This document shows, piece by piece, positions 1-62,281 of a stretch of DNA of 64,000 bases. The notes below the pieces were generated by a model that worked only from the letters and a program-made list of their open reading frames with translations, was not told the DNA's origin and searched no databases. A program made the position numbers and the translations under genes. The stretch lies in NCBI GenBank assembly GCA_029865125.1, contig JAOUHN010000002.1, positions 713-64,712 on the forward strand, in the 5' to 3' direction. Within the stretch, counting starts at the first letter, position 1. The number at the start of each line of letters is the position of its first letter. The stretch comes from Candidatus Moraniibacteriota bacterium (GTDB taxonomy: Bacteria > Patescibacteriota > Minisyncoccia > Moranbacterales > UBA9337).

Positions 1-2148
1 CTCAGCCCTGAACAACTCAAAGATTTTAAAGGTCTTCGAGGAGACGCTTCAGACAACATTCCTGGAGTGAAAGGAATTGGAGAAAAAGGGGCTATTAATC
101 TTTTGAAAGAATACGAGACTTTGGAGGGGATATATGAGCATATTGATGAACTGAAGGGTGCTGTGAAAAAAAAGCTTGAGGATGGGAAAGAAATGGCATT
201 TCTTTCCAAGGAATTGGGAACAATTAAGACTGACATTGAGCTTGATTTAAAATTGGATGAATGTGCAACGCATGATTTTGATCGAGAAAAAGTAACCAGC
301 CTTTTTCGAGAGTTGAATTTTCACAGTCTTTTGAAAAGGCTTCCGGGAAATTCAGACTTAAGAAAGAGAGATGAGGCGGAGATGGAGAAACGAAAAGAGA
401 TTCAATGTGAACTTCTGACTGAAGATGGTTTGAAAAGATTTTTTGATGAAATGAGCAAGCAAAAAGAAGTAGCTTTTGATTTGAGTTGTGTGGGTGAAAA
501 TGTCAAAGCCCTATCTTTTTTCTGGGGAGAAAAAAAGGCATATTTTGTGGAAATTGATGATGATAGTTTGGAATATATCAAAGAATTTTTTGAAAAATCA
601 AGCGTGAAAAAGATTGGTTTTGAACTCAAAGATGCAATGAGAAAAATGGAAGAAGGGCTCGGAGTGAAAATGAATTTGAATGTGTGGGACACGAAACTTG
701 CGAGTTATCTTTTGAATCCTGGAGGAAAAATTGATTTTGGAAAAGTTGCACTAGAAGAGCTTGGAGAGGAGTTTGAGAAAGATAATGGAGGACAACTTAG
801 TCTTGGAATGGAGGGTATTGAGGAGATATCACAGAAGGGCTGCAAGAAAGTTAAAATTATTTTTGATTTGAAACAGAGATTGAATGAAAAATTGGAAGAA
901 ATTAGCAATGATCAGAAAAAGGGAAAAACAATTCTGGATGTTTTTGAAAAAATTGAAATGCCACTTACTCGAGTGCTTTTGAATATGGAAAGAAACGGAA
1001 TCAGATTAAACGTTTCTTTGATGAACGAAATGTCAAAAAAAATTGGAGGAGAACTCTCAAATCTTGAAAAAGAAATTTGCGACATAGCAGGAAGACAATT
1101 TAATATTAATTCGCCCAAACAACTCACAGAAATTCTTTTTGATGAAATGAAAATCTCAACAGAAGGCATCAAAAAGACTAAGACCGGAATTTCAACCGCA
1201 GCTAGTGAGTTGGAAAAATTGAGAGGTAGACATGATATTATTGCGAGTATTGAAAGATACCGTGAAGCATTCAAATTAAAAAGCACATACATTGATGCGC
1301 TTCCAAAAGCAGTAGACAAAAATTCAAGAATTCACACAACTTTCAATCAAGCAGTGACCGCAACCGGGCGACTTTCATCTGAAAATCCAAATCTTCAAAA
1401 TATTCCAATTCGAACTGTAGAAGGAAAAATGATTCGAACAGCCTTTGAGTCTGAAGACGGCTGGGTTTTTGTGGCAGCGGATTATTCTCAAATTGAACTT
1501 CGAGTGATGGCACACATCAGTGGAGACAAGAAATTGATCGAAGCTTTTGAAAAAGGCGAAGACATTCACAAAAAAACGGCTGCAGAAATCAACAAGGTGT
1601 CGTTGGATGAAGTGACTGACAAAATGAGAAGTGAAGCAAAGGCACTCAATTTCGGAGTGATTTATGGAATGGGCTCCTATGGCTTTTCTCAATCCGCTGG
1701 AATTGATCAAAAGGAAGCCAAAAAATACATTGAAAAGTACATGGAGAATTTTCCAGGAGTGGCAGCATACATTGAAAACACAAAAGAATTTGCTCGTAAA
1801 AATGAATTTGTGGAAACAAAAACAGGAAGGCGAAGATATTTGCCTGAAATTAATTCTTCTAATTTCATGGTGAAGGGCACAGCAGAAAGAATGGCAGTGA
1901 ACATGCCAGCACAAGGCTTTGCAGCTGACATTATGAAGATGGCAATGCTTGCAATCCACAAGGAATTTGCACTCAATTCTGATGTGAAAATAATTCTTCA
2001 GATTCACGATGAAATCATTTTGGAAGTGAAAAAAGAATTGGCTGAAAAAGTTTCTCACAAACTGAAAGAAATTATGGAAAATACGTATAAGCTAAACGTT
2101 CCTTTGGTAGTGGACACTGAAATTGGAAAGAACTGGGGAGAAGTGTAG
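1..2148 (+). CDS. polA: DNA polymerase I (5' end outside window)
   Basis: Frame-1 ORF is open from base 1 (LSPEQLKDFKGLRGDASDNIPGVKGIGEKG = 5'-3' exonuclease HhH region). Pol motif A DYSQIELRV, motif B RSEAKALNFGVIYG, motif C QIHDEI. Stop TAG at 2146-2148. Confidence 0.95.
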   Translation, partial: LSPEQLKDFKGLRGDASDNIPGVKGIGEKGAINLLKEYETLEGIYEHIDELKGAVKKKLEDGKEMAFLSKELGTIKTDIELDLKLDECATHDFDREKVTSLFRELNFHSLLKRLPGNSDLRKRDEAEMEKRKEIQCELLTEDGLKRFFDEMSKQKEVAFDLSCVGENVKALSFFWGEKKAYFVEIDDDSLEYIKEFFEKSSVKKIGFELKDAMRKMEEGLGVKMNLNVWDTKLASYLLNPGGKIDFGKVALEELGEEFEKDNGGQLSLGMEGIEEISQKGCKKVKIIFDLKQRLNEKLEEISNDQKKGKTILDVFEKIEMPLTRVLLNMERNGIRLNVSLMNEMSKKIGGELSNLEKEICDIAGRQFNINSPKQLTEILFDEMKISTEGIKKTKTGISTAASELEKLRGRHDIIASIERYREAFKLKSTYIDALPKAVDKNSRIHTTFNQAVTATGRLSSENPNLQNIPIRTVEGKMIRTAFESEDGWVFVAADYSQIELRVMAHISGDKKLIEAFEKGEDIHKKTAAEINKVSLDEVTDKMRSEAKALNFGVIYGMGSYGFSQSAGIDQKEAKKYIEKYMENFPGVAAYIENTKEFARKNEFVETKTGRRRYLPEINSSNFMVKGTAERMAVNMPAQGFAADIMKMAMLAIHKEFALNSDVKIILQIHDEIILEVKKELAEKVSHKLKEIMENTYKLNVPLVVDTEIGKNWGEV

Positions 2149-3282: not shown

Positions 3283-3303
3283 AAAAAATTTTAAAAATTA
3301 CAT

Positions 3304-3420: not shown

Positions 3421-3545
3421 TAAAAAAGTCAAAGGTACATAAGGTCTGTAAAGTCCGTAAAGTCCGTAAAGTCCATTGAGTCCATAAAGTCGAAAGTCTG
3501 TAAAGTCCGTAAAGTCTGTAAAATCCATTGAGTCCATAAAGTCGA
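3421..3545. repeat. tandem GTAAAGTCC / CATTGAGTC 9-bp repeats
   Basis: gtaaagtccgtaaagtccgtaaagtccattgagtccataaagtcgaaagtctgtaaagtccgtaaagtctgtaaaatccattgagtccataaagtcgaaagt. A second array is at 53395-53465. Confidence 0.85.
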
Positions 3546-3808
3546 AAGTGTTTCCAAGCTATTGGGCTATTACGAGGCGGCTATTGACAAAATTGATGAA
3601 ATATGCTAGGATGTACAGTCAAGTTGAAATGAGATTTGAGATGGGAGATTTGAGAATTGAGAATTTTTAAAACTAAATATATTAGGAAAATGTTTGGAGA
3701 GAGACATGAATTTTAAAAAGAAGACAACCGTTAGTCTTTTTGTGTCTCAGTGTCTAAGCATATTGATTACACAAGATTGATAGTTGTTTTTTTATTCTAT
3801 CGTTACTT

Positions 3809-3891
3809 GTCATTCTGAACTTGATTCAGAATCCCGAAATAATATCACGCGCGTTAGTCGTGGGGGATCCTGAAACAAGTTTAGGATGACA
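3809..3891. mobile_element. palindromic MITE-like element, family A (GTCATYCTGAAC...GTTCAGRATGAC)
   Basis: gtcattctgaacttgattcagaatcccg...ggatcctgaaacaagtttaggatgaca. Each arm is itself a hairpin. Homologous copies are at 13745-13827, 20106-20190, 42880-43290, 55632-55723 and 62199-62281. Confidence 0.8.
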
Positions 3892-5296: not shown

Positions 5297-5473
5297 AATT
5301 CGAGAATTAAGCGACTTACTTCGCGTGTTTTGACAAAATTCAGAACATAGGCGAGTAAGCGTCTATGATTTCTAGGTGATTCCCCACCAGCAAGAGCGGG
5401 AGAAGTGCAAGGTCTGAAATTGTCAACAATCGGCAGTGAAAGAGCGCTAAAACTTATCTGATGGAGAAAGATC

Positions 5474-6553
5474 ATGACTAATATCGCACAAAAAATCCAA
5501 AAAAGCCTGGTAGAATCTTTTGTTTTCACTAATGAAATCGCAAGGATACTCTCCTTGGGATTTGTTGGAAAAAGAAACATTATCGTTTTTGGGCCTGGCG
5601 GACATGGAAAGTCTGCAATGGTACAAAAGGTCATCGAAGACCTCGGTATGGCCGAGGAAACCTTTTTTCAATTCTTTGGCGAAGGCATGGACGAGTCCCG
5701 TCTTTTTGGCGGACTCAACTTCAAAAAGTTAGAAGAGGAAAAAGTTTTGGAATACTATCCCGAGAAATCTTTTCTGAATTCTCGGGTGGCCGTGTTTGAG
5801 GAGCTCTTTGATGCTCCTGCATCAGTTTTACTAGCTCTTAAGGACGTGTTGACTGCCAAAGAGCTTAGGAATGGATCGCAGCGATTCAAAATGAAAACCG
5901 AGGTTATTATTTGTCTTACCAACAAAGAGCCGAGCGAAATTTCGGACCTTGGTCCGGCAACTCATGCATTGATTGAGCGGTTTCCGCTTCAGCTCAATTT
6001 GAAGTGGAAGGACTATTCAGCTAAGAGTTATCTTCAGATGTTTGAGAAGGTAGCACATCAGTTTGACGGACCGGTTCTCAACGGATTCAAAGCTGTCTTG
6101 GCTGAAATTTTGGCCAAGGCTACCGAGGAAGGAAATTTTGTTTCTCCGCGGACAGCCGTGCACGCTTTTCAAGTGTGCCAAACGGCAGCGCAAATTCGTG
6201 GAGCAACCCAGGTTGAAAAGCAGGATCTCACTGATCTTCGTTTTTTGCCTGGACTTGAGGGCCTTGCTGAGACTATTCAGAAGGACCTCAATGTTGCCAT
6301 GGAGCGAGCCGAAGCGGAGGCTAAACTGGTTGAGGCAGAAGAAAAACTTCGGCGGTTAACCGGAGAACTTCGTGAAGCTAGTGCGCCGATTAAGGCGCTT
6401 CAGGTTGCCAAGAAATTGATGGCTTTTCAAGATGAGACTGCCAAGTTAAAAGTGACCGATGGTCTCAAGGATCGTCGCAAGGCGATTCGCGACTCGGTCG
6501 GTGAAAAAATCGCTGAGGCTCAAGCAAGAGCTTTGGAAAATACCCGCATTTAA
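5474..6553 (+). CDS. MoxR-like AAA+ ATPase with C-terminal coiled coil
   Basis: Walker A GPGGHGKS. MoxR/AAA_5-like core (VAVFEELFDAPASVLLALKDVLTAKELRNG...VIICLTNKEP...ATHALIERFPLQL, sensor LIERF ~ LDRF). C-terminal heptad-like AEAEAKLVEAEEKLRRLTGELRE. Confidence 0.7.
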   Translation: MTNIAQKIQKSLVESFVFTNEIARILSLGFVGKRNIIVFGPGGHGKSAMVQKVIEDLGMAEETFFQFFGEGMDESRLFGGLNFKKLEEEKVLEYYPEKSFLNSRVAVFEELFDAPASVLLALKDVLTAKELRNGSQRFKMKTEVIICLTNKEPSEISDLGPATHALIERFPLQLNLKWKDYSAKSYLQMFEKVAHQFDGPVLNGFKAVLAEILAKATEEGNFVSPRTAVHAFQVCQTAAQIRGATQVEKQDLTDLRFLPGLEGLAETIQKDLNVAMERAEAEAKLVEAEEKLRRLTGELREASAPIKALQVAKKLMAFQDETAKLKVTDGLKDRRKAIRDSVGEKIAEAQARALENTRI

Positions 6554-7919: not shown

Positions 7920-8599
7920 AATTGGAGGTGGACATGGTGCGAATAAGAGATTCTCCTTAGCTAGTAATCCAATGCTAGAGAGAGGTAGTAGCTCAATCAC
8001 AAGAAAAACTACCCGGCGGTATGCTTCCGATTTTTCTTTAGAGAAGTCGCCGTCGTTAACTTTCAAGAATTCGAATAGTTTTTGAAAGAAATTAGGGAGC
8101 AAGGGGGTTAATGAAAAGGAGCGAAACCTCTAAACAAAAAGAGCGTAAATATTGATAATGAAATGGCTGTGGAGGTATGACCCACGAAATCAATCTTATC
8201 AATATCCTTTCATAATTCTTTAGCTGAGTAGAACACAAAAAATCAGCATCATAACCTGAACAAGTTTTAGAATATTTGACTTGCTCTTGCATGCCTTTTA
8301 AAAAGGACAAGATTTGTTAGAATTTATTCTCATAAATCGGTAAGATCCATCTGCTAAACGGGAAAAGCCATGCAGGTGATAAATATTCCGAATCGTTTCA
8401 TTCTTTAGGTTGAGGGAGTTTGAAACATATGATTTCTGTGGCTTCAATCTGTGAACAGGCGCAGTAAACCCTCTTAACGCGCAATCAGCTGATTGTGTAT
8501 CGTTAATTCTACAAGGAGGTTCAGATATAATTTATCTGTTCCTCCTTAACTTAATATTAGTATTGATATAAATCGTTTTGGATTTGCAGGGTAAGCTAA

Positions 8600-8760
8600 G
8601 AGCCTGTTTAAAGTCTCCGTATTCTACTGCGAATCTGAGATTTTGGCTGCAAAATACCTAAATTTCGTTGAATTACTTTCCAAGTAGTCCTGTCTCAATT
8701 TATGTATTTTTCGCCTAAAATCTCAAATTCTCGCTACGAAAAGAGATTTTAAACAGGCTC
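8600..8760. mobile_element. MITE-like element family B (~160 bp, TIR GAGCCTGTTTAAA)
   Basis: gagcctgtttaaagtctccgtattctactgcgaatctgag...gagattttaaacaggctc. Near-identical copies at 28322-28481 and 32558-32718. Confidence 0.8.
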
Positions 8761-9289
8761 CGAGGTATTTCGTGAGTTTCATTTTTGGAGCTCAACTCTC
8801 TCCTTGAAATACTTTCTAGCCTACTTTGCAAATCTAAGACGGTTTGCAATATGTAGCATAGAACATAGAACATATAGCATAGAACATATAACATGGAGCA
8901 TAGAGCATGGAACTTAGAACATGGGACATATGACATAGAACACATAACATACAGCACATAATATACAGCATGGAGAATAATACAGGTGAATTTCGGTTCA
9001 GCTGTTTTTTTGTGTATGAATTAGAGTTGAGATGGTAGATCTGAGATAGAGAAACCCCTCCTCAGTCCTCCCCTTTAAAAAGAGGAGGAGGAAGTGAGAA
9101 TAATTTAAGATGTGATATGAGAAATATAAACCCCCTTTCCGCCAATTGGCGGACTCCCTTTGATGGAAAGGGGAGGAAGGAGGTGTTTTGTAATAGTTTG
9201 ATTTGATGATATAATATCACTATAGGAGATGCGAGAGGAGAGATAGGGATTTGAGAAATAATTTTAGAAAACTTAAAAATTAAAAACAT

Positions 9290-11179: not shown

Positions 11180-12754
11180 ATGAATAAATTAGATTTGAGA
11201 AAGAGATTTGAGAAAATAATTGAATATCTTTTTTATGTGGCTGTTTTTCTGCTTCCTTGGCAGACGGTTTTTTTGGTGCGTGAAATTTTTGTGGGGGGTG
11301 AGAAGTGGCAATATGGGACTGTTGGGGTGTATTTGAGTGATGTTGTTTTGGTTTTGTTGTTGGGTCTGGTTGTAGTGGGAAAATTGAATGTTGAGACAAA
11401 TTTTCAATTTTCAATTTTTCACCCTATGGGCGATCACCCGAAGGGTGACAATTTAAAATCAATTTTTAATGATGAATTTAAAAACAAGCAAAAACATGTC
11501 ACGGCGAACTTGTTTCAAAATCCCAAGCGAATATTGAGCGCGTGGTTTGATAAGGGGATCCTGAATCAAGTTCAGGATGACAAAGTGAGATGGTTTGCGG
11601 GACTATTTTTGTTTTGGATTGCGCTGTCAATTTTTTGGTCGCCGGACAAATTTTTGGCGACATATTTTTTCTTCAAAATTCTTTTAGGGGTGGGATTGTT
11701 TTTTGCAATTGGGCGCATCAAATTTGATTGGAAAAAATTAATCTTTGTTTTGTTTGTGAGTGCTGTTTTTCAAGCTGGACTGGGAGTGCAGCAATATTTG
11801 ACTCAGGAGGTTTTTCCAAACAAATGGCTGGGAATAAGTGAGCATCAAGCATTTGAGGGGGGCGCAAGTGTTGTTGAGAATTCAAATGAAAGATGGCTTC
11901 GGGCGTATGGTGGATTTGAACACCCGAATGTTTTGGGAGGATTTTTGGTTTTGATAATTTTGGTGATTATTGGGGTAAATTTTCAATTTAAAATTTTTCA
12001 CCCTATGGGCGATCACCCGAAGGGTGACAATTTAAAATCAATTTTTAATGATAGAATTTTAAAAAGAAAAAAATATTTTACACTTGGATTGCTGGTTGTG
12101 AGTTGTTGGCTGCTGATGACTGGTTTGTTTTTTTCTTTTTCAAGAACTGCTTGGTTGGCTTTGATTGTTGGTTTAATCATCTTGACTGTGCTGAAATATA
12201 AGGGGATCCTGAATCCCGCTCCAGGCGAGGCGAGGCAAGTTCAGAATGACAAAGTGAAGTGGTTGATGATTATTTTGATTCCTATAATTTCAATTTTAGT
12301 GATGAATTGGAGTAATTTTTTCACTCGTTTTGATGCTGGTGCGAGGCTGGAACAGAAATCTGTGAGTGACAGGGTGAGTTATTTTTTTGAGGCGAAAGAG
12401 GTGATTGAAAATAATTTGTTTCTTGGAGCGGGGACAGGAAATTACGTCCAGGAAGTGATGAAAAATGATGAACTCAAAAAAGATGTGTGGGAATATCAGC
12501 CCGTTCATAATGTTTTCTTGTTGATTTTTTCTGAGCTGGGGCTCATCGGACTTGTGTTATTTGTTGGGTTATTGATTTTGATAATGCGCAGATGTGGACT
12601 AGAATCACTTCCAATATTTGCAGCGCTGTTGATTTTCATGATGCTTGATCATTGGCTTTGGACCAGTCATTTCGGAATGCTATTTTTCTGGCTAATTTTA
12701 GGACTCACTTGTTGCAAAAAGTCCTCTGGTGTAAGATTGAAAAGAGGTTTTTGA
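11180..12754 (+). CDS. O-antigen ligase (Wzy_C)-like polytopic membrane protein carrying three in-frame repeat-element insertions
   Basis: Multi-TM protein with SRTAWLALIVG and PVHNVFLLIFSELGLIGL (O-antigen ligase-like HN..L..E.G motif). The ORF stays open through two copies of the caccctatgggcgatcacccgaagggtgaca element (11400-11470, 11985-12055) and two family-A MITE arms (11555-11582, 12203-12251). Confidence 0.55.
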   Translation: MNKLDLRKRFEKIIEYLFYVAVFLLPWQTVFLVREIFVGGEKWQYGTVGVYLSDVVLVLLLGLVVVGKLNVETNFQFSIFHPMGDHPKGDNLKSIFNDEFKNKQKHVTANLFQNPKRILSAWFDKGILNQVQDDKVRWFAGLFLFWIALSIFWSPDKFLATYFFFKILLGVGLFFAIGRIKFDWKKLIFVLFVSAVFQAGLGVQQYLTQEVFPNKWLGISEHQAFEGGASVVENSNERWLRAYGGFEHPNVLGGFLVLIILVIIGVNFQFKIFHPMGDHPKGDNLKSIFNDRILKRKKYFTLGLLVVSCWLLMTGLFFSFSRTAWLALIVGLIILTVLKYKGILNPAPGEARQVQNDKVKWLMIILIPIISILVMNWSNFFTRFDAGARLEQKSVSDRVSYFFEAKEVIENNLFLGAGTGNYVQEVMKNDELKKDVWEYQPVHNVFLLIFSELGLIGLVLFVGLLILIMRRCGLESLPIFAALLIFMMLDHWLWTSHFGMLFFWLILGLTCCKKSSGVRLKRGF

Positions 12755-13735: not shown

Positions 13736-13744
13736 ATTTCTCGT

Positions 13745-13827
13745 GTCATTCTGAACTTGATTCAGAATCCCGAGATGATACCGCGCGTGTTATTTGATGA
13801 GGATCCTGAATCAAGTTCAGGATGACA
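13745..13827. mobile_element. MITE family A copy
   Basis: gtcattctgaacttgattcagaatcccgag...ggatcctgaatcaagttcaggatgaca. Confidence 0.8.
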
Positions 13828-17897: not shown

Positions 17898-18350
17898 GTG
17901 AAATTTATGAGTGATTTGTTTGAGGGAGCAATAACAATATTTTATCGAGATAATGGAGGTGAGAATGAATTTTTGGTAGTGGAAAATTCTTCTTCAGGAA
18001 ACATCACTTTTGTTGGTGGTGCTAAGGAAGGATTCGATGAAAGTTTGGTGGAAGTGGCTAGACGTGAAAATGAAGAAGAGCTGGGGATTGACCCGGATGA
18101 ATATGAACTTGTTGAGACTGATGTTTTTCACAAATTTGTTTTTTCTCCTCACAAAAAGAATCGAGTGGGAAATGAAGGAAGGTATCAAGTTTTTGTTTCA
18201 GACTTGAGTGATGCTGATTTTGAAATTACTCCAACGGATGAACTCAAAAATGTTTGGTGGATGAGTGAGGAAGAGGTTTTTGACAACTTGACCTTTGATG
18301 ACTTGAAAGATGTTTTTGAAAGAGTGTTGGATGAAGGAGTGATAGCGTAG
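17898..18350 (+). CDS. NUDIX hydrolase
   Basis: Nudix box GGAKEGFDESLVEVARRENEEELGI. Confidence 0.8.
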   Translation: MKFMSDLFEGAITIFYRDNGGENEFLVVENSSSGNITFVGGAKEGFDESLVEVARRENEEELGIDPDEYELVETDVFHKFVFSPHKKNRVGNEGRYQVFVSDLSDADFEITPTDELKNVWWMSEEEVFDNLTFDDLKDVFERVLDEGVIA

Positions 18351-18595
18351 AACATGGAACACATAGCATATAACATAGAGCATGGAACACATAGCATGGA
18401 ACACATAGCATAGAACACATAGCATAGAACACATAGCATAGAACACATAGCATAGAACACATAGCATAGAACACATAGCATAGAACACACAGCATATAAC
18501 ATAGAGCATGGAACACATAGCATATAACATGAAACACATAGCATAGAACACATAGCATAGAACACATAGCATGAGACAGATAGCATAAAAAATAT
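18351..18595. repeat. ~17 tandem copies of 14-bp unit ACATAGCATAGAAC
   Basis: Directly visible. The all-Cys/Tyr/Met minus-strand ORFs here are translation artefacts. Confidence 0.9.
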
Positions 18596-18600
18596 TCAAG

Positions 18601-18624
18601 CCCCGTGGGATGCGTCCCGCGGGG
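18601..18624 (-). terminator. GC hairpin terminator for 18634-19176 gene
   Basis: ccccgtgggatgcgtcccgcgggg, followed on the minus strand by a T-run. Confidence 0.55.
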
Positions 18625-20061: not shown

Positions 20062-20105
20062 ACGTGCGTAGGAATATTAAATTTAATTAATTCTCACGTA
20101 AGCAT

Positions 20106-20190
20106 GTCATTCTGAACTTGATTCAGAATCCCGAGATAATGTTGAGTGCGCGCGGATATAGGGGGATCCTGAAACAAGTTCAGGATGACA
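20106..20190. mobile_element. MITE family A copy between regulator and efflux genes
   Basis: gtcattctgaacttgattcagaatcccgag...gggggatcctgaaacaagttcaggatgaca. Confidence 0.8.
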
Positions 20191-27289: not shown

Positions 27290-28360
27290 ATGTTAGAAAA
27301 GTCTACACAATTTATTCAAAATAATTCTCCGGACGGAGGGTTTTTGCAGTCGGATGAATGGAAAGATTTCCAGGAGAGTACTGGAAAAAAATCTTTTCAT
27401 GTCTCTTTGGATTGCTTTTGGGCGAATGCTTTTTTACATGAGCTTCCTTTGGTTGGGAAATATCTATATGTTCCGAGAGGACCTGTTTTGAATGTTTCTT
27501 TCGGGTCATGTTGTGAGTGCGGTCAAAAAGGAATTTTGGAGCTTTTGAGAATTGCCAAAAAAGAAAATTGTGGTTGGATTCGAATAGACATTGCAAGTGA
27601 AAAAGAATTGAGATTTTTGAAAAAAATCAAAGGTTTGAAAATCAAAAAAGCTCCGCATGATGTGCAGCCAAAACAGATTTTTGTGATTGACATTGATGGG
27701 AGTGAAGAGGAGATTTTGTCTGAAATGAAGCCAAAAACGAGATACAATATTCGTTTGGCACAGAAAAAAGGAGTTGAAATTGAAAGCGTGGACCGCAACT
27801 CGGATAAGTTGGAGGAATTTTTGAGTGAATTTTTGAGACTGACTGATGTGATGGCTAAGAGAAGTGGAATTACAACTCACTCAAAGGAATATTACAAAAA
27901 AATGTTGAAAAATATTTCAGAAAACAATCTGAGATTGTACACAGGAAAATTTGAAGGAAAAATTATTTCAGCAGCGCTTATTTCTTTTTATGGGAACACC
28001 GCGACATATCTTCATGGAGGGAGTGATGATGAGGCAAGAAATGTGATGGCGCCATTTCTTCTTCACTGGCAAGCCATTTTGGATGCAAAAGAAAAAGGTT
28101 ACAAAAGATATGATTTTGGAGGAGTGAAAACTTCAGTTGATGAAAGCGGAAAGGTGAAAATACAGAAGTCACCCTGGGAAGGAATTTCCAGATTTAAACT
28201 TGGTTTTTCAAAAAACAAAAAACCCTTGAATTTTTCAGGGAGTTATGATATAGTGGTCGGAAGTCATAAATATGGCTTGTATAGGTTCCTCCAGAGAACG
28301 AAGGAACTTTTTGTTTTCCTGGAGCTTGTTCAAAATCTCCGTATTCTACTGCGAAAATAA
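27290..28360 (+). CDS. FemAB-family peptidoglycan interpeptide-bridge aminoacyltransferase
   Basis: KYLYVPRGPV ... ISFYGNTATYLHGGS FemABX-like motifs. Start set to ATG 27290 (the ORF-track start is a TTG inside a repeat). The last ~13 codons and the stop lie inside MITE-B copy 28322-28481. Confidence 0.7.
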   Translation: MLEKSTQFIQNNSPDGGFLQSDEWKDFQESTGKKSFHVSLDCFWANAFLHELPLVGKYLYVPRGPVLNVSFGSCCECGQKGILELLRIAKKENCGWIRIDIASEKELRFLKKIKGLKIKKAPHDVQPKQIFVIDIDGSEEEILSEMKPKTRYNIRLAQKKGVEIESVDRNSDKLEEFLSEFLRLTDVMAKRSGITTHSKEYYKKMLKNISENNLRLYTGKFEGKIISAALISFYGNTATYLHGGSDDEARNVMAPFLLHWQAILDAKEKGYKRYDFGGVKTSVDESGKVKIQKSPWEGISRFKLGFSKNKKPLNFSGSYDIVVGSHKYGLYRFLQRTKELFVFLELVQNLRILLRK

Positions 28361-28481
28361 AATTTCGGCTGCAAAATACATAAAGTTCGTTGGATTATCT
28401 CTAATAGTCCTGCCTCAATTTCTGTATTTTTCGCCAGAAATTTTAATTTCTCGTTACGAAAGAGAGATTATGAACAAGCTC
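28322..28481. mobile_element. MITE family B copy
   Basis: gagcttgttcaaaatctccgtattctactgcgaaaataaa...gagagattatgaacaagctc. Confidence 0.8.
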
Positions 28482-28513
28482 TTTAAAAAAGTAGTGACGA
28501 ATCATCAAAGGAG

Positions 28514-32511: not shown

Positions 32512-32557
32512 CTCTAGTGGGCACAGAAAAGATATTCAAAGAATGATTGCTTGCTTA

Positions 32558-32718
32558 GAACCTGTTTAAAATCTCCATATTCTACTGCAAATCTGATATT
32601 TTGACTGCAAAATACATAAATTTAGCTAGATTATTTTCAATAATTCTTGCCTTAATTCTTGTATTTTTCGCTCAAAATATCAATTTTTTGCTACGAAAGA
32701 GAGATTCTAAGCAGGCTC
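32558..32718. mobile_element. MITE family B copy
   Basis: gaacctgtttaaaatctccatattctactgcaaatctgat...gagattctaagcaggctc. Confidence 0.8.
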
Positions 32719-32973
32719 TTGGAATTTTTCTTTCAAGATGAAGTTTTTATATTTTTGATAATATTAAAACGTTCACTAATGAAAATGAGAATTGTGATCA
32801 AGCTCTAAGTTGCAATGTTGTGAGATATTCTTTGAATAGAAGTACGAAGAAGTAGATTTTAAATATGTTTTTGGCATTCAGCCTAAAGCATACTTTATAT
32901 AAAAAATAATAATAAAAATGTTAACCTCAACTTTAAAAAGATGTGTTGTGGGTGACATTTTTACAGTAAATGA

Positions 32974-37474: not shown

Positions 37475-37750
37475 ATGGAAATAATTAGTGTTGCTCATGC
37501 AGCAGGAGTAATTGAGGAAGCTCCTCGCTTGGTGGATGTTGGTGCGAACGTCATATATTTTTTGTTGCGAATCTTCGGTGTTCTTGTTATAATTGCATCA
37601 GTGATTGCAGGGATGATGTATCTCACTTCTTCTGGAGATGAAAGGAAAATCGAGGTTGCAAAAAGAGCAGCGACTTGGATTGTTGTGGGTATTTTTGTTG
37701 CATTGGGAGCAATCATTGTGACGAGGCAAATAATAAGTTTTTTGAGTTAG
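37475..37750 (+). CDS. T4SS-pilin-like small membrane protein
   Basis: VIAGMMYLTSSGDERKIEVAKRAATWIVVGIFVALGA module. Confidence 0.55.
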   Translation: MEIISVAHAAGVIEEAPRLVDVGANVIYFLLRIFGVLVIIASVIAGMMYLTSSGDERKIEVAKRAATWIVVGIFVALGAIIVTRQIISFLS

Positions 37751-37818
37751 TTGAGAATAATAAAAAACAAAAAAAATCAAAAATATTTTTGATAAAGTTA
37801 TTGAAAGGAGGTGGAAAT

Positions 37819-38181
37819 ATGAAAACAAAAATAAAAAATTTAGTGTATGGTTTGAGCTTGATGGTTTTGATAGCGCCTGTGTTGGTTTCTGCAGCGGATT
37901 CAAAGCCTGGCGCAGTTCCTTCTGAAGCGAATTTATCCAAAGCAACTTTTTTGGAAGTTTTGACTAAGTTTATGAACTGGCTACTCGGTTTGGTGGGTGT
38001 TTTGGGAGTAATTGGCTTTGCAATTTCTGGAATAATGTATCTCACAGCTGCCGGTGATGAAGGAAGAATAGAAACAGCCAAAAAGACTATGATCTGGTCA
38101 ATTGTTGGAATTGTGGTGGCTCTTATGGGGGGAATTATTTTGACTACTGTAACAGGAATCTTGGGAGAAGGAAGCAAATAA
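37819..38181 (+). CDS. T4SS-pilin-like small membrane protein
   Basis: Start moved to ATG 37819 behind AAAGGAGGTGG. Signal peptide, then AISGIMYLTAAGDEGRIETAKKTMIWSIVGIVVALMG. Confidence 0.6.
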   Translation: MKTKIKNLVYGLSLMVLIAPVLVSAADSKPGAVPSEANLSKATFLEVLTKFMNWLLGLVGVLGVIGFAISGIMYLTAAGDEGRIETAKKTMIWSIVGIVVALMGGIILTTVTGILGEGSK

Positions 38182-38263
38182 TCTAGTAAGTTAATTTTTT
38201 AAGAGCTTAAATCGTGCTTGCCTAGCACAATAGGGGGCATAAGCAGCATTCAATTTATTTTTT

Positions 38264-38626
38264 ATGATGAGTGAAATAAAAAAAATCTTTTGGTCGTTTG
38301 CGCTTTTTTCACTGTTAATCCCAGTGGTTGCATTCGGTCAATGGGATGAAGGAATGGGATATGCTGAAGATGCTGGACTGCCTGAGGGTACAATCGCTGA
38401 CATTTTGATCAATGTCATGGAATGGTTGCTCTCATTGGTAGGGGTTTTGGGAATAATCAGTTTTGCAATTTCCGGAATCATGTATCTCACAGCTGCTGGT
38501 GATGAAGGAAGAATGGAAACGGCCAAAAAGACCATGATTTGGGCAATCATCGGAGTCATTGTTGCTCTTGCGGGGGCGATTGCGATTACTACGATCGATG
38601 CTATTTTGAATGCAGATATTATATAG
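38264..38626 (+). CDS. T4SS-pilin-like small membrane protein
   Basis: AISGIMYLTAAGDEGRMETAKKTMIWAIIGVIVALAG. Confidence 0.6.
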   Translation: MMSEIKKIFWSFALFSLLIPVVAFGQWDEGMGYAEDAGLPEGTIADILINVMEWLLSLVGVLGIISFAISGIMYLTAAGDEGRMETAKKTMIWAIIGVIVALAGAIAITTIDAILNADII

Positions 38627-38768
38627 GCTCAAATCAAATAGGTTTAACAAATGCAAATGCAGTCTCAGGTTGAGACTGTTTTTTGTTTTTCAGACATTGT
38701 GGTATAATCAAAGAAATAATAAAACAAGGGTATTGATTGAGAGAGGATGATTTTTTCAAACCCGTCTA

Positions 38769-39194
38769 ATGAAAAAAAGTAACATGAAAACAAAAATTTT
38801 TTTTAGAAGTTGTGTTTTTTTCTTGTTTTCAATGATGTTGCTTGTTGTTTCAGAAGGTGTTTTGGCTGTTACTTGTCCCGGATCCGGTTTTGAAGTGGAG
38901 GGAGGAGTTTGCATCCCAACCGGAACAGGGCTTCCTGATCCTGGAACCAGCACGCCAGTGCTAGACATCCTGATCAATTTCATGGAGTGGGCTTTGAGCA
39001 TTTTTGGTGTGGTGGCGATAATCGCATTTATCATCTCCGGAATTCAATATCTGACTGCTACGGGTGATGAATCCAGAATCACAACAGCAAAAACAAACAT
39101 GAAATGGTCCATCGTGGGGGTCATTGTGGGACTCATCGGATACATCGTGATTACTACCATCGATGCAATTTTGAATACTTATGCTATAATTTAG
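38769..39194 (+). CDS. T4SS-pilin-like small membrane protein
   Basis: IISGIQYLTATGDESRITTAKTNMKWSIVGVIVGLIG. Confidence 0.6.
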   Translation: MKKSNMKTKIFFRSCVFFLFSMMLLVVSEGVLAVTCPGSGFEVEGGVCIPTGTGLPDPGTSTPVLDILINFMEWALSIFGVVAIIAFIISGIQYLTATGDESRITTAKTNMKWSIVGVIVGLIGYIVITTIDAILNTYAII

Positions 39195-39214
39195 ATTTTT
39201 AAGGTTATAAAAAA

Positions 39215-39820
39215 ATGAAATTTTCAATGTATAAAAAAATATTTTTGAGTGTTTTTTTGGCAAGTGCAATGTTTTTTTTCGCAAATCAGTTTTGTCAAGC
39301 AGCGCCAATCACGTTTACTAGTCCACTGAAATACACTACGGTTGAATCTTTTACTGCTGGTTTTTTGGAAAGATTGCAAGGTGTGATTGTTATGATAGCG
39401 GTGGTGTTCATTGTGATTGGAGGGCTTTTGTATATGACTTCTGCTGGAAATGAACAAAAAATTGAGACCGCAAAAAAAGCTATTTCCGCTGCGGTCATAG
39501 GATTGGCAATCGCTGTTGCAGCTCCAACTTTCATCAAAGAAATCTATATTATTTTTGGAACAGGAGTTCCTGGAAGTGCTGCGGGGGCCCCAAGTCTCGC
39601 GAAGATACTCACAAATGTTTTGAATTTCTTGTTGGGAATTCTCGGAGTTTTGGCAGTTGTCATGATGGTTTTTGCGGGAATCATGTATCTCACAGCGGCG
39701 GGCGATGAAACTCGAATTGAAACCGCAAAAAAGATGACAAAGTGGTCTATTATGGGAGTGGCAGTTGCTCTTTCAGCAATAGTGATTGTCAGACAAGTGG
39801 CACTTCTTTTCACTGCATAA
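39215..39820 (+). CDS. T4SS-pilin-like protein with internally duplicated pilin module
   Basis: Two modules: VIGGLLYMTSAGNEQKIETAKKAISAAVIGLAIAVAA and VFAGIMYLTAAGDETRIETAKKMTKWSIMGVAVALSA. Confidence 0.6.
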   Translation: MKFSMYKKIFLSVFLASAMFFFANQFCQAAPITFTSPLKYTTVESFTAGFLERLQGVIVMIAVVFIVIGGLLYMTSAGNEQKIETAKKAISAAVIGLAIAVAAPTFIKEIYIIFGTGVPGSAAGAPSLAKILTNVLNFLLGILGVLAVVMMVFAGIMYLTAAGDETRIETAKKMTKWSIMGVAVALSAIVIVRQVALLFTA

Positions 39821-42769: not shown

Positions 42770-42879
42770 ACTTGAATTCTTACAGTTTTTGATCGTTGAA
42801 TTATACATGTTGTGCGATGAAGATTTAAAGTATGCAATTTGGTGAACAAAAAATGGCAATTGAAGCTCATATAAAACAT

Positions 42880-43290
42880 GTCATCCTGAACTTGTTTCAG
42901 GATCCCAAAGAATAAGCACCTGCTTAATTTAGAAGATAAAGCCATATATGAAACAGTATTGTGTTTATATAATAACTAACAATAATAACACTTCTTTATA
43001 TATTGGAGTAACAGGTAATTTGCAAAAAAGAATCTGGGAACACAAGGACAAGGTAGTAGAGGGTTTTACTAAAAAATACAACTGTGAAAAATTAGTATAT
43101 TTTGAACAAACAGAAAATGTTCACAGTGCACTCAACAGAGAAAAGCAATTAAAAAATTGGCACAGGCAATGGAAAATAAATCTGATTTCTAAGAGTAATC
43201 CAGAGTGGAAAGATTTATTTGATGAATTATGATGTATTAAATTTAACATGTGCTAGTTGCAGGGGATCCTGAAACAAGTTCAGGATGACA
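42880..43290. mobile_element. family-A palindromic element whose two arms flank a GIY-YIG nuclease gene (candidate autonomous copy)
   Basis: Left arm gtcatcctgaacttgtttcaggatccc at 42880; right arm ggggatcctgaaacaagttcaggatgaca ending at 43290. The 285-bp ORF lies between the arms, whereas other copies have only a 20-40-bp spacer. Confidence 0.65.
42948..43232 (+). CDS. GIY-YIG nuclease family protein (COG2827-like, 94 aa)
   Basis: CVYIITNNNNTSLYIGVTGNLQKRIWEH ... KLVYFE ... EKQLKNW = GIY-YIG motif with conserved R and E. Confidence 0.75.
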   Translation: MKQYCVYIITNNNNTSLYIGVTGNLQKRIWEHKDKVVEGFTKKYNCEKLVYFEQTENVHSALNREKQLKNWHRQWKINLISKSNPEWKDLFDEL

Positions 43291-43407
43291 AGTGACGAAG
43301 GTTGCTTTTTTAGAGAAAATATTGTATTCTTTTTTGAACGGAAAATTTCGTTCCTGTATGTAATTGAAAACTAAATATCAAAAAGAGATAGTGATCGGAG
43401 GTGCATC

Positions 43408-44235
43408 ATGAAAGGAATCCATCGTGATTTTAGGAATAAAGTAAGTGAACCTCAGAGTTTATTTGGCCTGGATTATCGGAGTATTTCCGTTCAAGGGTCA
43501 AAGGAAACATTCCTGCTTCTTGGAGGAAGGGGACTGGGATGGGAAGCTGTCACTCACTTAGCTTTTTTCCTGTATCAGCTGGGGCATAGTGTTATCCTTG
43601 TGTCGCTTCCGGGATGCGGAAGCTCAAGAGATTACAAGATTATCAAACCTTTTCCTGTGCAAAGCTTTTCGATTTTTTCCCAGTTTTTTGGGGAGATGGT
43701 GCGGCAACATGGGAGGATGCACGTCATTTCGCATTCTATGAGCGGACGATATTTTGCAGACTATCTAGCTAAATATGAGTCTGCGCAAAGGGATGTGAAA
43801 TCTGTCATCTTTGTGAATCCGTCAGGATTCCGAAAAGAGAGTCCAATGTTGATTTTTCGATTTCTGTTGTCGAAAATCATGCATAAAGTTCAAGAGATGC
43901 ACGGTGTTGATTTGGAGGAGTTGAAAGCTCTGAGCTTTGCTCCGAAAACCTCCATGTATTCTCGCGTGGATAGAATCGGGCAAAGGCTGGCAGAGATCAA
44001 GTATTGCATGCAAGGGGACATTCTGGATAGCCTGAAGCAAATCGCAATTCCAAGGATGGTGATTCTGGGAGAGCGCGATTTTGTTTTTCCGTCTGCAACG
44101 GATATGTCCATCAGGACTGAACTTGAAAGCGCGGGGTGTTTTGTCTCGGTGATGGATTTTGACCATAATCCCACAATTTTGCCGAATGCGGGTGATTTGG
44201 CGGAGGAAATTAGCCTGTATGCTCAAAATATTTGA
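43408..44235 (+). CDS. alpha/beta-hydrolase fold protein
   Basis: Nucleophile elbow HSMSG, ~275 aa. GC content is higher than neighbours. Confidence 0.55.
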   Translation: MKGIHRDFRNKVSEPQSLFGLDYRSISVQGSKETFLLLGGRGLGWEAVTHLAFFLYQLGHSVILVSLPGCGSSRDYKIIKPFPVQSFSIFSQFFGEMVRQHGRMHVISHSMSGRYFADYLAKYESAQRDVKSVIFVNPSGFRKESPMLIFRFLLSKIMHKVQEMHGVDLEELKALSFAPKTSMYSRVDRIGQRLAEIKYCMQGDILDSLKQIAIPRMVILGERDFVFPSATDMSIRTELESAGCFVSVMDFDHNPTILPNAGDLAEEISLYAQNI

Positions 44236-46306: not shown

Positions 46307-46780
46307 ATGATGTTAAAAATAACTATTCTTTCAGTTGGAAAGATTAAAGAAAAATATTATCAAGGAATCATTGATGAATATGCAAAGAGGCTCACTCCGT
46401 ATGTTAAGCTTGATTTTGAGGTGCTCAAAGCAGAGCCTTTTTTTGATGATAGTGACAAGGAGGGAATAAAGAACAAAGAAGGAGAAAAAATTGTCAATTT
46501 TCTTGAAAAAAACAGATGGAGCAAAATTTTTATTCTTGATGAAAGAGGAAAAGAATTCACTTCTCATGAATTTTCAAAAGAAATTCATGACGGCACTGAG
46601 CCTATTGTTTTTGTGATTGGAGGAAGTTTAGGTTTGAGCCAGAATGTTTTGAGTTATCCCGGATCAAAAAGAATGGCGCTTTCTGAAATGACTTTTCTTC
46701 ATGAGATGACACAAGTGATTCTCATTGAGCAGATTTACCGCGCTGTGGCTATTGAGAAGGGGAAGAAGTATCATTACTAG
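46307..46780 (+). CDS. rlmH: 23S rRNA (pseudouridine1915-N3)-methyltransferase RlmH
   Basis: MLKITILSVGKIKEKYYQGIIDEYAKRL start typical of the RlmH SPOUT family; 157 aa. Confidence 0.8.
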   Translation: MMLKITILSVGKIKEKYYQGIIDEYAKRLTPYVKLDFEVLKAEPFFDDSDKEGIKNKEGEKIVNFLEKNRWSKIFILDERGKEFTSHEFSKEIHDGTEPIVFVIGGSLGLSQNVLSYPGSKRMALSEMTFLHEMTQVILIEQIYRAVAIEKGKKYHY

Positions 46781-46781
46781 T

Positions 46782-46985
46782 AGCACATAACATAGAACAC
46801 ATAGCACATAGCATAGAACATATAGCACATAACATAGAACATATAGCACATAGCATAAAACATATAGTGCAGAACAAAAAATCCGGATTTATCCGGATTT
46901 TTTGTTCCATGTTCCATGTTCCATGTTCCATGTTCCATGTTCCATGTTCCATGTTCCATGTTCCATGTTCCATGTTCCATGTTTT
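46782..46985. repeat. inverted pair of short-period repeat arrays flanking a terminator hairpin
   Basis: CATAGAACA-type units 46782-46870, hairpin aaatccggatttatccggattt-ttttg (46875-46904), then 9x ATGTTCCATG in opposite orientation 46905-46985. Confidence 0.85.
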
Positions 46986-47847
46986 ACATTCCAAGCATTG
47001 AGAAGATGATCATGAGAATGATGATGTTTGTTGTTGAGATGTGGTGGAGTCGGTTGGGGTTGATGGAAGATATGATGTTGATGTGAACCACAATTGCAAG
47101 GGAAATGAGAGTGAGAATGACAATGATATTTCTCAAGACGTCACTTTGCTTGTTGATTTTTGCTGAAAGAACAAAGCTATTTTTTTGTTCCTTTTTTGAA
47201 TATGCGCTGGGTTCAAGTTTCAAATCAGATGAAGAAATTTTTGAATCTGGAGTGGTGTTTTTCAATGCCATTAAAGTGCTTCCTCCGACTGCAGAAGAGG
47301 ATGAAGCAATTGATGAATATTTTTGACTCAGAGTTTGATTTTTTGGTTGAGCAAAAAGTTGAACTGAAATGATGACTTGTTTGTTTTTGATTTCCCCTTC
47401 CAAGACAGCGACGCCGGTTTCTTGATAATTTGGGTCAAGAATATTTTCTCTGTGAGTAGGGCTATTCATCCAAGCGGTGTGTTGCGAAAGAGGATCTTTG
47501 TAGTTTATTGCCAAATTTTCTCCAGCATATCGATATTCATATTCACTTGAACGAAACCAATACCATGGTGTTTTTCCTGCTGGAGAAGTGTGTGAGAAAT
47601 AGTTGTTGCTGATCATGTCGTAGGCCTTTTTTTGTGCTGCCTCTTTTAATTTTTCATTTTCAGTTAGTGGTGCGAGTTCTTTTTCCATTCTTGATTGATT
47701 GGTGAGTCGAACTATTTCTTGTGGAGTTATTTGCGCAGCCCAAGCGCAGGAGGCGACAAAAGACATCAATACTATTGAAGTGAAAATTGAAATATTAAAT
47801 TGTTTGTTTGTGATTTTCATTTTTGAAATATAAAAAAAGCGCTTCAC
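46984..47847 (-). CDS. CAP (SCP/PR1-like, YkwD-type) domain protein, membrane-anchored
   Basis: NYFSHTSPAGKTPWYW ... GENLAINY ... HTAWMNSPTHRENIL; C-terminal TM; the true start may be the internal MKITNKQF. Confidence 0.65.
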   Translation of the reverse strand: MKRFFYISKMKITNKQFNISIFTSIVLMSFVASCAWAAQITPQEIVRLTNQSRMEKELAPLTENEKLKEAAQKKAYDMISNNYFSHTSPAGKTPWYWFRSSEYEYRYAGENLAINYKDPLSQHTAWMNSPTHRENILDPNYQETGVAVLEGEIKNKQVIISVQLFAQPKNQTLSQKYSSIASSSSAVGGSTLMALKNTTPDSKISSSDLKLEPSAYSKKEQKNSFVLSAKINKQSDVLRNIIVILTLISLAIVVHINIISSINPNRLHHISTTNIIILMIIFSMLGM

Positions 47848-47929
47848 CCATGAAACACCCTTATATTTGCGAACCTCCTTATTTGTCTATAACATCATTA
47901 TAGCGCATTTTAAGGGAAAAGTCAAATCC

Positions 47930-48200
47930 ACATAACACATAACACATAACACATAACACATAACACATAACACATAACACATAACACATAACACATAACA
48001 CATAACACATAACACATAACACATAACACATAACACATAACACATAACACATTAAGCACTAGTCGGTGAGTTTTGATTTATGTTTTCCATGTTCCATGAT
48101 ATGTGTTTTATGTTCTATGCTCCATGATATGTGTTTCATGCTCCATGTTCCATGATATGTGTTTTATGTTCTATGTTCCATGTTCCATGATATTATTGTA
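47930..48200. repeat. ~18x CATAACA 7-bp tandem array followed by opposite-orientation CATGGAACA-type units
   Basis: cataacacataacacataaca... then atgttccatgatatgtgtt... Confidence 0.9.
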
Positions 48201-48234
48201 TAATGAAAGTGTAAGAAGAATAACAATAAAAAAT

Positions 48235-53334: not shown

Positions 53335-53478
53335 CATTGTTAAATTAAAAATCAAAAATTGAAAATCAAAAGTTTGGAATGCAGAAATGCAAGGTGAAAG
53401 TTTGTGAAGTCTGTGAAGTCCATAAAGTCCATAAAGTAAAAAGTCTGTAAAGTCTAAAGAAAAAATCAAAAAAACACT

Positions 53479-53523
53479 GTCATCCTGAACAATAGTGAAG
53501 GATCCCAGAATAAAAGCACTGAT
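53479..53523. mobile_element. solo left arm of MITE family A
   Basis: gtcatcctgaacaatagtgaaggatcccagaataaaagcac. Confidence 0.55.
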
Positions 53524-55590: not shown

Positions 55591-55631
55591 GTCATGGTAT
55601 AATGTGAATATTAGCACTGAGTAGATTTGAT

Positions 55632-55723
55632 GTCATTCTGATCCGCCAGTAGGCGGAGAAGAATCCCCGAATAAAGGGCACGAGTGTTGAATTACGAGAT
55701 CCTTCACTTCGTTCAGGATGACA
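55632..55723. mobile_element. MITE family A variant copy
   Basis: gtcattctgatccgccagtaggcggagaagaatccc...gatccttcacttcgttcaggatgaca. Confidence 0.7.
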
Positions 55724-62147: not shown

Positions 62148-62198
62148 ATGTATGTGGATTTTAAAATATAATTTTTTTCAAAAAATCTGCGCAAACAT

Positions 62199-62281
62199 GT
62201 CATCCTGAACTTGTTTCAGGATCCCTGAGTATAAGCACTCGTAGTGTTATTTTGAGATTCTGAAACAAGTTCAGAATGACA
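62199..62281. mobile_element. MITE family A copy
   Basis: gtcatcctgaacttgtttcaggatccctgagtataagcac...ttctgaaacaagttcagaatgaca; the spacer resembles the 5' flank of the GIY-YIG copy (gaataagcac). Confidence 0.8.

Follow-up and report, generated by a model that had tools for sequence, protein, structure and literature searches.

Ssn proteins are single-domain GIY-YIG nucleases that bind an oriented hairpin repeat solely in single-stranded DNA (ssDNA) and cut a few nucleotides upstream of it (Chenal et al., Nat Commun 2025, PMC11893778). The meningococcal protein has 94 aa and belongs to cd10448 (GIY-YIG_unchar_3) of CDD, activity has been demonstrated for four Ssn relatives, and Ssn cleaves neither the reverse strand, nor double-stranded DNA (dsDNA), nor RNA (PMC11893778). 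The repeat, called NTS in Neisseria (CGTCATTCCCGCGMAVGCGGGAATCYRG), has been generalised as SRM; SRMs are found on both sides of 42% of Ssn homolog genes, and Rickettsia and Wolbachia are listed among the SRM-rich genomes (PMC11893778). The same authors likened NTS-ssnA-NTS to an insertion sequence (IS), drew the parallel to IS200/IS605 and REP/RAYT, proposed domestication, and reported that SsnA of N. meningitidis cuts transformation by NTS-bearing DNA about 5-fold (PMC11893778). Here we describe an ssn-like gene between two hairpin arms at 42874-43302 of a 64-kb stretch of DNA from a metagenome-assembled genome of Candidatus Moranbacteria (Patescibacteria), the name under which the nuclease and BipA proteins of the stretch are deposited (contig JAOUHN010000002.1; the whole stretch is hereafter called the window). 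Judging from its sequence, the unit is very probably a member of the Ssn/SRM system, that is, of a known kind. An initial annotation of the window took the architecture to be previously undescribed, but it is already that of the published system, down to the likeness to an IS noted there. Our literature search found no follow-up to the Ssn paper, no description of derivatives resembling MITEs (miniature transposable elements with inverted repeats) and no described members from Patescibacteria.

The initial annotation placed an intact GIY-YIG open reading frame (ORF), 42948-43232, between two arms of a palindromic repeat, and this arrangement holds. Pfam finds GIY-YIG (PF01541, E=2.6e-17, residues 3-78) and no other domain in the translated protein, and the ORF is enclosed by two inverted hairpin arms TGTCATCCTGAACTTGTTTCAGGATCCC at 42880-43289, which form part of a 56-nt inverted repeat with 82% complementarity (42876-42931 vs 43238-43293). 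With 94 aa and one domain the protein lies within the size range of the Ssn family (single-domain GIY-YIG, about 90-150 aa). In the Ssn paper a family member is a protein whose BLAST match to Neisseria SsnA has E<1e-10 and covers no less than 75% of the query; as comparison protein we took the N. gonorrhoeae ortholog (94 aa; 598..882 of our locus L002, a segment of NZ_CP119140.1) and not meningococcal SsnA. The window nuclease falls well inside these limits against the gonococcal ortholog, with 47% identity, E=4e-32 and 91/94 residues aligned by BLASTP, and E=9e-22 at 96% coverage by tblastn. Its residues Y7, Y18 and E65 correspond to Y6, Y17 and E64 of meningococcal SsnA and are invariant in a 27-sequence alignment that includes the gonococcal protein; mutating any of the three in SsnA abolishes cleavage (PMC11893778). 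A PDB sequence search with the nuclease returned no relative of solved structure, and a look-up of the exact protein sequence gave no match. We mention in passing that NZ_CP119140.1, a 2.17-Mb N. gonorrhoeae chromosome whose ssnA region is 1881678-1883150 (L002), is filed as a plasmid.

Each arm of the unit consists of GTC, an 8-bp stem (ATCCTGAA/TTCAGGAT), a 5-nt loop and then C, which is the anatomy of NTS and SRM repeats (GTC, 8-bp stem, 4-5-nt loop, then C), and has a computed fold of -6.1 kcal/mol as ssDNA. Both arms lie within 70 nt of the ORF and point outward, so that each 500-bp flank contains a GTC(A/T) leader, a palindromic stem and a C after the palindrome, as described for oriented Ssn motifs. 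Two results weigh against the assignment. The published SRM pattern, HGTCWYN(0-2)YYVSBRHN(0-5)WNVSBRGN(0-2)RNCYNB, has no match in the window, so that the arms are not SRMs by the literal pattern, and it matches only 15/70 gene-flanking arms of the homologous loci described below and 1/42 arms of the TTGW-loop class; in a positive control it gave 7 matches in 1.47 kb of N. gonorrhoeae. The window arms are missed because they have A/T at stem positions for which the pattern allows only G/C, and surveys that rely on it probably undercount such repeats since this class escapes it. Second, some homologs have no arms; one on Rhizobium plasmids (43% identity; L087, L089), for instance, has none of the GTC-hairpin type. 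On those plasmids we also observed a stretch of about 1 kb of non-coding DNA between the homolog and htpG that repeats on other plasmids of the same strains; an indel between related Rhizobium plasmids is unrelated to hairpins.

A scan with one genome per species gave 80 loci whose proteins are 52-77% identical to the window nuclease, from Moraniibacteriota, Saccharibacteria, Bdellovibrionales, Gastranaerophilales, Alpha- and Gammaproteobacteria, Bacteroidota, Ignavibacteria, Elusimicrobia, Treponema and others. At 75 of them at least 150 nt were available on each side. Outward GTCAT arms stand on both sides of the gene at 33 of these 75 loci and at least one outward arm is present at 60, while inward arms on both sides occur at only 5; the background rate is 0.8% per 150-nt interval and strand. 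The units have a median length of 376 bp; the median distance from the start of the left arm to the ATG is 53 nt, and that from the stop codon to the end of the right arm is 34 nt. Arm-gene-arm is the normal form of the family, and such units in related genomes, which the initial annotation had proposed as a check, are thus plentiful, the arms travelling with the gene to unrelated loci. In many homologs the called protein even starts or ends within the arms, with VILNLFQDP-like N-terminal and LLDAETSSA-like C-terminal extensions. These spurious extensions are translations of the hairpin, as seen in the database gene calls P0033, P0038, P0054, P0009 and P0098.

In the 35 two-armed units compared, 66/70 arms have a perfect 8-bp stem. 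Among 65 distinct arms, compensatory changes make five of the eight pairs of the stem covary, as at pair 3 (CG 28, TA 25, GC 11, AT 1), pair 5 (TA 33, CG 32) and pair 6 (GC 37, CG 25, TA 2, one non-standard). GTC, a C:G fourth pair and the C that follows the stem show no variation, and 63/65 arms begin the stem with A:T. GTC and the trailing C are critical to cutting and binding by mutagenesis (PMC11893778). This pattern indicates that the hairpin is selected both as structure and as sequence. Two main hairpin classes exist, the CTGAAC-TTGW class of the window and one identical to the Neisseria NTS, and both are found in Moraniibacteriota; a third, GTCATYCTGARY...RYGAAGRATC, occurs at 53479 and 55722 of the window and also in Planktothrix. 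The left and right arms of one unit are often systematically different. Protein clades follow hairpin class only weakly, with 59.2% protein identity within and 55.3% between classes, a difference reached in 0/2000 permutations, from which we draw no conclusion because the relatedness of the samples inflates it.

The same arms are dispersed over the window. The terminus GTCATYCTGAAC, with at most one mismatch, occurs 15 times where 0.9 are expected, and 0/100 shuffles reach 15. Most arms are paired into doublets that lack the gene, measure 82-91 bp and lie mostly between genes, with a frequency of about one per 10 kb. The doublets are 73-86% identical among themselves, and of the subterminal sequence of the unit they retain about 13 nt on the left and about 16-20 nt on the right. 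When the window is taken together with 749 kb of related loci, outward gene-less doublets number 39 and have a median length of 85 bp. Of the at least seven intergenic palindromes first counted, five complete doublets (3809-3890, 13745-13826, 20106-20189, 55632-55722 and 62199-62280) and the full unit stand (Table 1); the copy at 53479 is a solo variant left arm. The resemblance of the 62199 spacer to the 5' UTR of the GIY-YIG copy, also pointed out at that stage, is real, the left 46 nt of that copy being 93% identical to the unit (62193-62238 vs 42874-42919), and the derivation of the short elements from a gene-bearing unit is reasonable given the shared subterminal sequence. By tblastn with the nuclease the 64-kb window holds no second ssn gene, giving one gene for about 15 arms.

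Some arms carry a nested, GC-rich second hairpin within the loop, e.g. TCCGCCAGTAGGCGGA (window 55632-55665 and 12200-12250; 5430-5478 and 15688-15725 of L001, a related 70-kb contig), and the whole variant doublet at 55631..55723 recurs at 15688-15780 of L001. As the same variants recur in two genomes, nested-hairpin arms are heritable subfamilies and not random decay. Arrays of a 9-nt unit (AAAGTCCGT-like) lie at 3423-3562 and 53388-53457; the second has two tRNA genes upstream of it and the solo arm at 53479 immediately downstream.

Two copies inside a coding sequence, reported in the initial annotation, are indeed present, one as a doublet with a decayed left arm and the other as a single right arm, both in frame in ORF 11180..12754, which encodes an O-antigen-ligase-like membrane protein of 524 aa. 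The segment encoded by the doublet is missing from 13/13 aligned homologs (429-507 aa, 35-57% identical; taken from the best 21 hits in a library of 1.8 billion proteins), and its site is a variable loop. The same ORF contains a second, unrelated repeat of 118 nt at 11385-11502 and 11964-12081 (84% identical), likewise in frame, which encodes NFQF(S/K)IFHPMGDHPKGDNLKSIFND and has a hairpin of its own, TCACCC...GGGTGA. The copy at 11385-11502 is absent from the aligned homologs except for a possible remnant in homolog P0244; that at 11964-12081 lies in a variable region where absence from homologs is not clear-cut. In total the ORF carries four in-frame repeat insertions.

Full units also occur at more than one place. 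The related contig L001 has two, 5 kb apart, one in a ThiI/desulfoferrodoxin and the other in an HD protein/UvrA context, both unlike the matrixin/hydrolase context of the window. The three units of about 430 bp are 78-87% identical within 42874-43302 and 30-53% outside, the similarity starting about 6 nt left of GTCAT and ending about 13 nt right of ATGAC; AAACAYT, as at the left edge, also precedes the arms at 53479 and 62199. By part, the left ends are 82-86%, the right ends 78-85% and the ORFs 84-87% identical. Differences between the ORFs fall on the three codon positions as 10/4/28, 8/4/24 and 10/4/31 in the three pairwise comparisons, and because they concentrate at third positions we conclude that all three ssn genes are under purifying selection. 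Nuclease homologs are 66-75% identical across Moraniibacteriota, Bdellovibrionales, Gastranaerophilales and other unrelated groups. Judged by protein divergence in general, such identity between groups of this kind is far above what vertical descent would lead one to expect for a 94-aa protein, and it implies horizontal spread of the whole unit. Taken together, the unit copies, the doublets and the in-frame copies support past mobility.

A number of observations weigh on the other side. The copies are old: neither the doublets nor the full units (84-87% identical) include near-identical copies, which speaks against recent mobility. The initial annotation saw no obvious target-site duplication, and none was seen in the flanks of 36 units and the window doublets, where just a pyrimidine precedes GTCAT. 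No orthologous empty site was recovered for the unit at 42880, there being no close relative that covers the locus: a metagenome scan for an empty site with the neighbouring hydrolase gave no match, a set of 5.8 billion clustered proteins contains, at E<=1e-10, no homolog of this alpha/beta-hydrolase (43408-44235) beyond the protein itself, and the contig of the closest genome by BipA (89% aa identity; GCA_042568235.1, L083) starts inside BipA and runs away from the locus, with no arms in its 11.6 kb. Among 2.9 million viral contigs just 3 relatives of the nuclease were confirmed. No promoter-like site was found between the left arm and the ATG, leaving the unit without an internal one. Excision by peel-and-paste as in IS200/IS605 is not directly applicable because inverted arms leave one cleavable site per strand. 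Moreover, GIY-YIG nucleases act on DNA by hydrolysis, which leaves no covalent intermediate for strand transfer, and they have no joining function.

One further locus bears on the question. Plasmids of Planktothrix agardhii (L088, L090, L091) have a defence-island slot between an MmeI/PglX-like methyltransferase gene and the DISARM gene drmA, which is occupied by a hairpin-flanked GIY-YIG gene in one strain and by a toxin-antitoxin pair, hypothetical protein plus PIN, in two, with tandem arrays of doublets of about 98 bp (GTCATTCTGAGTGAAACGAAGAATCTC...) in 3/3 strains. The slot thus provides no clean empty site, and the appearance is that of cassettes exchanged at the repeats, not of a simple insertion.

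We suggest the following way of working, in which binding and cleavage are borrowed from the studied relatives. The 94-aa protein would recognise its cognate hairpin (GTC, an 8-bp stem beginning with A:T, a 4-5-nt loop, C) in single-stranded DNA only and hydrolyse the strand a few nucleotides 5' of GTC. Because both arms face outward, nicks are predicted just outside the unit or doublet, one per strand: on the top strand at the left, within or just left of 42874..42879, and on the bottom strand at the right, within 43290..43302. These positions coincide with the start and end of the similarity between copies. The gene and its two arms constitute a discrete unit of about 430 bp (42874-43302), and the 82-91-bp doublets are its two ends without the gene, standing to it as REPINs stand to their RAYT gene. 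In the cell the nuclease would presumably act on ssDNA such as incoming or replicating DNA. We see an even chance that nicks on ssDNA, arising in replication, repair or uptake, aided a slow spread of units and doublets through host replication or repair enzymes. At present the system may persist in the manner of REPIN/RAYT, possibly with a host role in the handling of ssDNA.

The alternative that survives best is a domesticated host system without ongoing mobility, in which the nuclease cuts ssDNA at marked places, such as DNA being taken up or recombination intermediates, and the arms beside the gene are a relic or serve autoregulation. We regard this as possible, though somewhat on the doubtful side. 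It would account for the effect of SsnA on transformation in N. meningitidis (PMC11893778), for old and diverged copies whose ORFs and non-coding ends are nevertheless conserved to much the same degree, for a chiefly intergenic distribution of doublets, and for a single ssn gene beside some 15 arms in 64 kb, as with single-copy RAYTs. It does not readily explain why three unrelated contexts, of which two are separated by 5 kb on one contig, should hold the same unit of about 430 bp, nor proteins 66-75% identical in unrelated groups, which imply that the whole unit spread horizontally, and copies lying in frame within a gene are hard to explain as selected marks. Domestication and membership in the Ssn/SRM system are not mutually exclusive.

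Less well supported is an autonomous IS with a GIY-YIG transposase, the nuclease excising and reinserting the unit and mobilising the doublets as MITEs. This idea, which the initial annotation favored, had already been voiced by the Ssn authors (PMC11893778). The distinct left and right ends with their sharp boundaries, the doublets that resemble deletion derivatives, and the multi-copy distribution across groups all fit it, and we nevertheless think it rather unlikely, since target-site duplications and identical or near-identical copies are lacking as described above, no joining activity is recognised for a 94-aa hydrolytic nuclease, and the literature searched contains no GIY-YIG-based bacterial IS family. 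A transposase role would go beyond the activity established for the family, which nicks ssDNA by hydrolysis 5' of the hairpin and does so on a single strand at each arm. In a related and equally doubtful version, Ssn units would be autonomous mobile elements with the 94-aa hydrolytic nuclease as their sole protein, and nicks in ssDNA just outside each outward hairpin would let host replication or repair copy the unit, and the doublets in trans, to new sites, including sites in frame within genes. Were this true, bacterial transposable elements would include a new class that parallels REPIN/RAYT with a GIY-YIG enzyme and has spread horizontally over many bacterial groups, Patescibacteria included.

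Two further alternatives have little left to commend them. The gene could be a free-standing homing endonuclease gene, or the arms could be terminators or RNA hairpins unrelated to the nuclease; either is very improbable. The initial annotation's description 'homing-endonuclease-type' does not fit a single-domain protein that has no DNA-binding module. In favour of a homing endonuclease there are weak N-terminal matches to phage homing endonuclease families, PHROG 314 at E=2.8e-5 and TIGR01453 (group I intron endonucleases), but the latter, the sole NCBIfam match, scores 22.8 bits against a cut-off of 56, PADLOC and PHROGs give weak, partial matches only, and relatives are as rare in viral contigs as stated above. 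As for RNA, the left arm read on the minus strand has a terminator-like score, and covariation in the stem alone cannot separate RNA from ssDNA. However, an Rfam scan of the window returned two tRNAs only and no family matching the arms, which may point either way with respect to the genes beside them and are also present within a coding sequence; moreover, the invariant unpaired GTC and trailing C fit the protein recognition mapped biochemically (PMC11893778). That a MITE or two half-insertions came to flank a resident GIY-YIG gene by coincidence is practically negligible: doublets are frequent enough, at about one per 10 kb, but two outward arms at a fixed distance at 33/75 loci of unrelated groups against a background of 0.8% exclude chance double insertion, the arms move with the gene to different loci, and many called homolog proteins begin or finish inside them.

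The features of the unit and its dispersed copies are collected in Table 1. The window also holds other repeats. Arrays of a 7-nt unit (ACATAGC/ACATAGA, complement TTCCATG, 14-nt spacing) lie at 3291-3408, 8826-8998, 18315-18620, 46767-46991 and 47919-48213; they are intergenic, some overlapping mechanically listed ORFs. A non-coding sequence of about 175 nt is present in three copies (66-79% identical), at 8589-8763, 28311-28483 and 32547-32720, each upstream of an ORF, and has no Rfam match at the gathering threshold. A 190-nt segment in four tandem copies (61-77% identical) at 37958-39795 is a tandem paralog array, its copies falling in the successive small ORFs 37675..38181, 38264..38626, 38769..39194 and 39215..39820.

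Table 1. Features of the Ssn-type unit and of its dispersed copies in the window (a dot marks rows given without strand; nick positions predicted at the outer boundaries are discussed in the text).
Feature	Position	Strand	Evidence or remark
Left outer boundary, AAACAT	42874..42879	+	Similarity between full-unit copies starts about 6 nt before GTCAT
Left arm, Ssn-related hairpin motif: GTC, stem 42883-42890/42896-42903, loop CTTGT, CCC	42880..42906 (core 42880-42904)	+	Fold, NTS-like anatomy
Left subterminal region and 5' leader, AAAGAATAAGCAC...	42907..42947	+	First ~13 nt kept in gene-less doublets
ssn-like gene, 94-aa single-domain GIY-YIG nuclease	42948..43232	+	Pfam, BLASTP, catalytic residues, codon-position pattern
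Right subterminal region, ...ACATGTGCTAGTTGCA	43233..43261	+	Last 16-20 nt or so kept in doublets
Right arm, identical motif type, stem 43266-43273/43279-43286, GTCAT outward	43262..43289 (core 43265-43289)	-	Motif, fold
Right outer boundary, AAGTGACGAAGGT	43290..43302	-	Conserved in 3/3 full units; identity falls to 35-53% past 43302
Gene-less doublet: left arm, ~26-nt spacer, right arm	3808..3891	.	Motif search, repeat comparison
Doublet with decayed left arm, in frame in ORF 11180..12754, encodes ...HVTANLFQNPKRILSAWFDKGILNQVQDDKV...	11496..11582	.	Repeat comparison, homolog alignment
Single right arm, loop with nested hairpin, in frame in ORF 11180..12754, KGILNPAPGEARQVQNDKV	12200..12251	-	Motif search
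Gene-less doublet, 86% identical to 3808 copy	13744..13827	.	ssDNA fold -20.9 kcal/mol, z = -6.6, long hairpin
Gene-less doublet	20105..20190	.	Motif search, ssDNA fold
Solo left arm, variant hairpin class GTCATCCTGAACAATAGTGAAGGATCCC, then subterminal-like AGAATAAAAGCAC	53478..53506	+	Motif search
Gene-less variant doublet: left-arm loop holds nested GC hairpin; right arm of GTCATCCTGAACGAAGTGAAGGATC class	55631..55723	.	Motif search
Gene-less doublet, left half resembling full unit	62198..62281	.	Motif search, repeat comparison

With the window, a family that is valued as site-specific ssDNA cutters gains a member from Patescibacteria and a further class of AT-rich hairpin, CCTGAA-CTTGT-TTCAGG. 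The data that bear on the question of mobility also go further than those of the Ssn paper (PMC11893778), with sharp-ended copies at unrelated loci, REPIN-like doublets retaining subterminal sequence of the unit, in-frame copies that homologs lack, and an outward direction of the arms in most two-armed units.

Among known systems, GIY-YIG homing endonucleases of the I-TevI type share the GIY-YIG catalytic core with the window protein; those enzymes are multi-domain, cut intron-less alleles in dsDNA and are encoded by introns or phages, whereas the window protein lacks a DNA-binding domain and is rare in viral contigs. The neisserial dRS3/NIME repeats are short palindromic elements, too, which cluster between genes and have the same hairpin, inverted, at either end. 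Rickettsia palindromic elements, which we liken to the arms by their description, insert in frame into coding sequence and do not destroy the gene (PMC10969869). Both differ from the window repeats in being described as repeats without a known partner enzyme. A classical MITE/IS pair has terminal inverted repeats in common between gene-bearing and short elements, as seen here, but the only ORF of the window unit encodes a GIY-YIG hydrolase and not a DDE, HUH, serine or tyrosine recombinase. IS200/IS605 elements (TnpA) are also very small, leave no target-site duplication and have subterminal hairpins that are recognised in ssDNA; their ends are, however, not inverted repeats and both cuts fall on one strand, while the window ends are inverted with one cleavable site per strand, and the enzyme is of a different family.

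The Ssn/NTS system itself shares with the window a 94-aa single-domain GIY-YIG protein with the same catalytic residues, the GTC(A/T) leader, the A:T-initiated stem and the trailing C, the presence of the motif on both sides of the gene, and many dispersed, mainly intergenic copies. The window stem is AT-richer (CCTGAA/TTCAGG, CTTGT loop), the repeats are mostly compact 82-91-bp doublets that also occur in frame within a gene, and the host belongs to Patescibacteria, a group without mention in the Ssn paper (PMC11893778). The window arms point outward, the commonest two-sided arrangement in the 75-locus sample, whereas gonococcal ssnA is atypical in that its two nearest NTS face inward, with outward NTS doublets (spacer about 50-60 nt) on either side.

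REPIN/RAYT (Bertels and Rainey 2011, PMC3116915; PMC3337134) provides the closest working analogy. There, too, inverted-hairpin doublets with a short spacer can form a single long hairpin, the same repeats flank a small nuclease gene of few copies, the system acts on single-stranded hairpins, and the copies are old, diverged and persistent, unlike those of an IS. The RAYT protein belongs to the HUH Y1 transposases, as in IS200/IS605, and works through a covalent intermediate, whereas the window enzyme is a non-homologous, hydrolytic GIY-YIG nuclease; and where REPIN/RAYT has been described as mostly vertical, the Ssn-type unit has spread over many bacterial groups at high identity.

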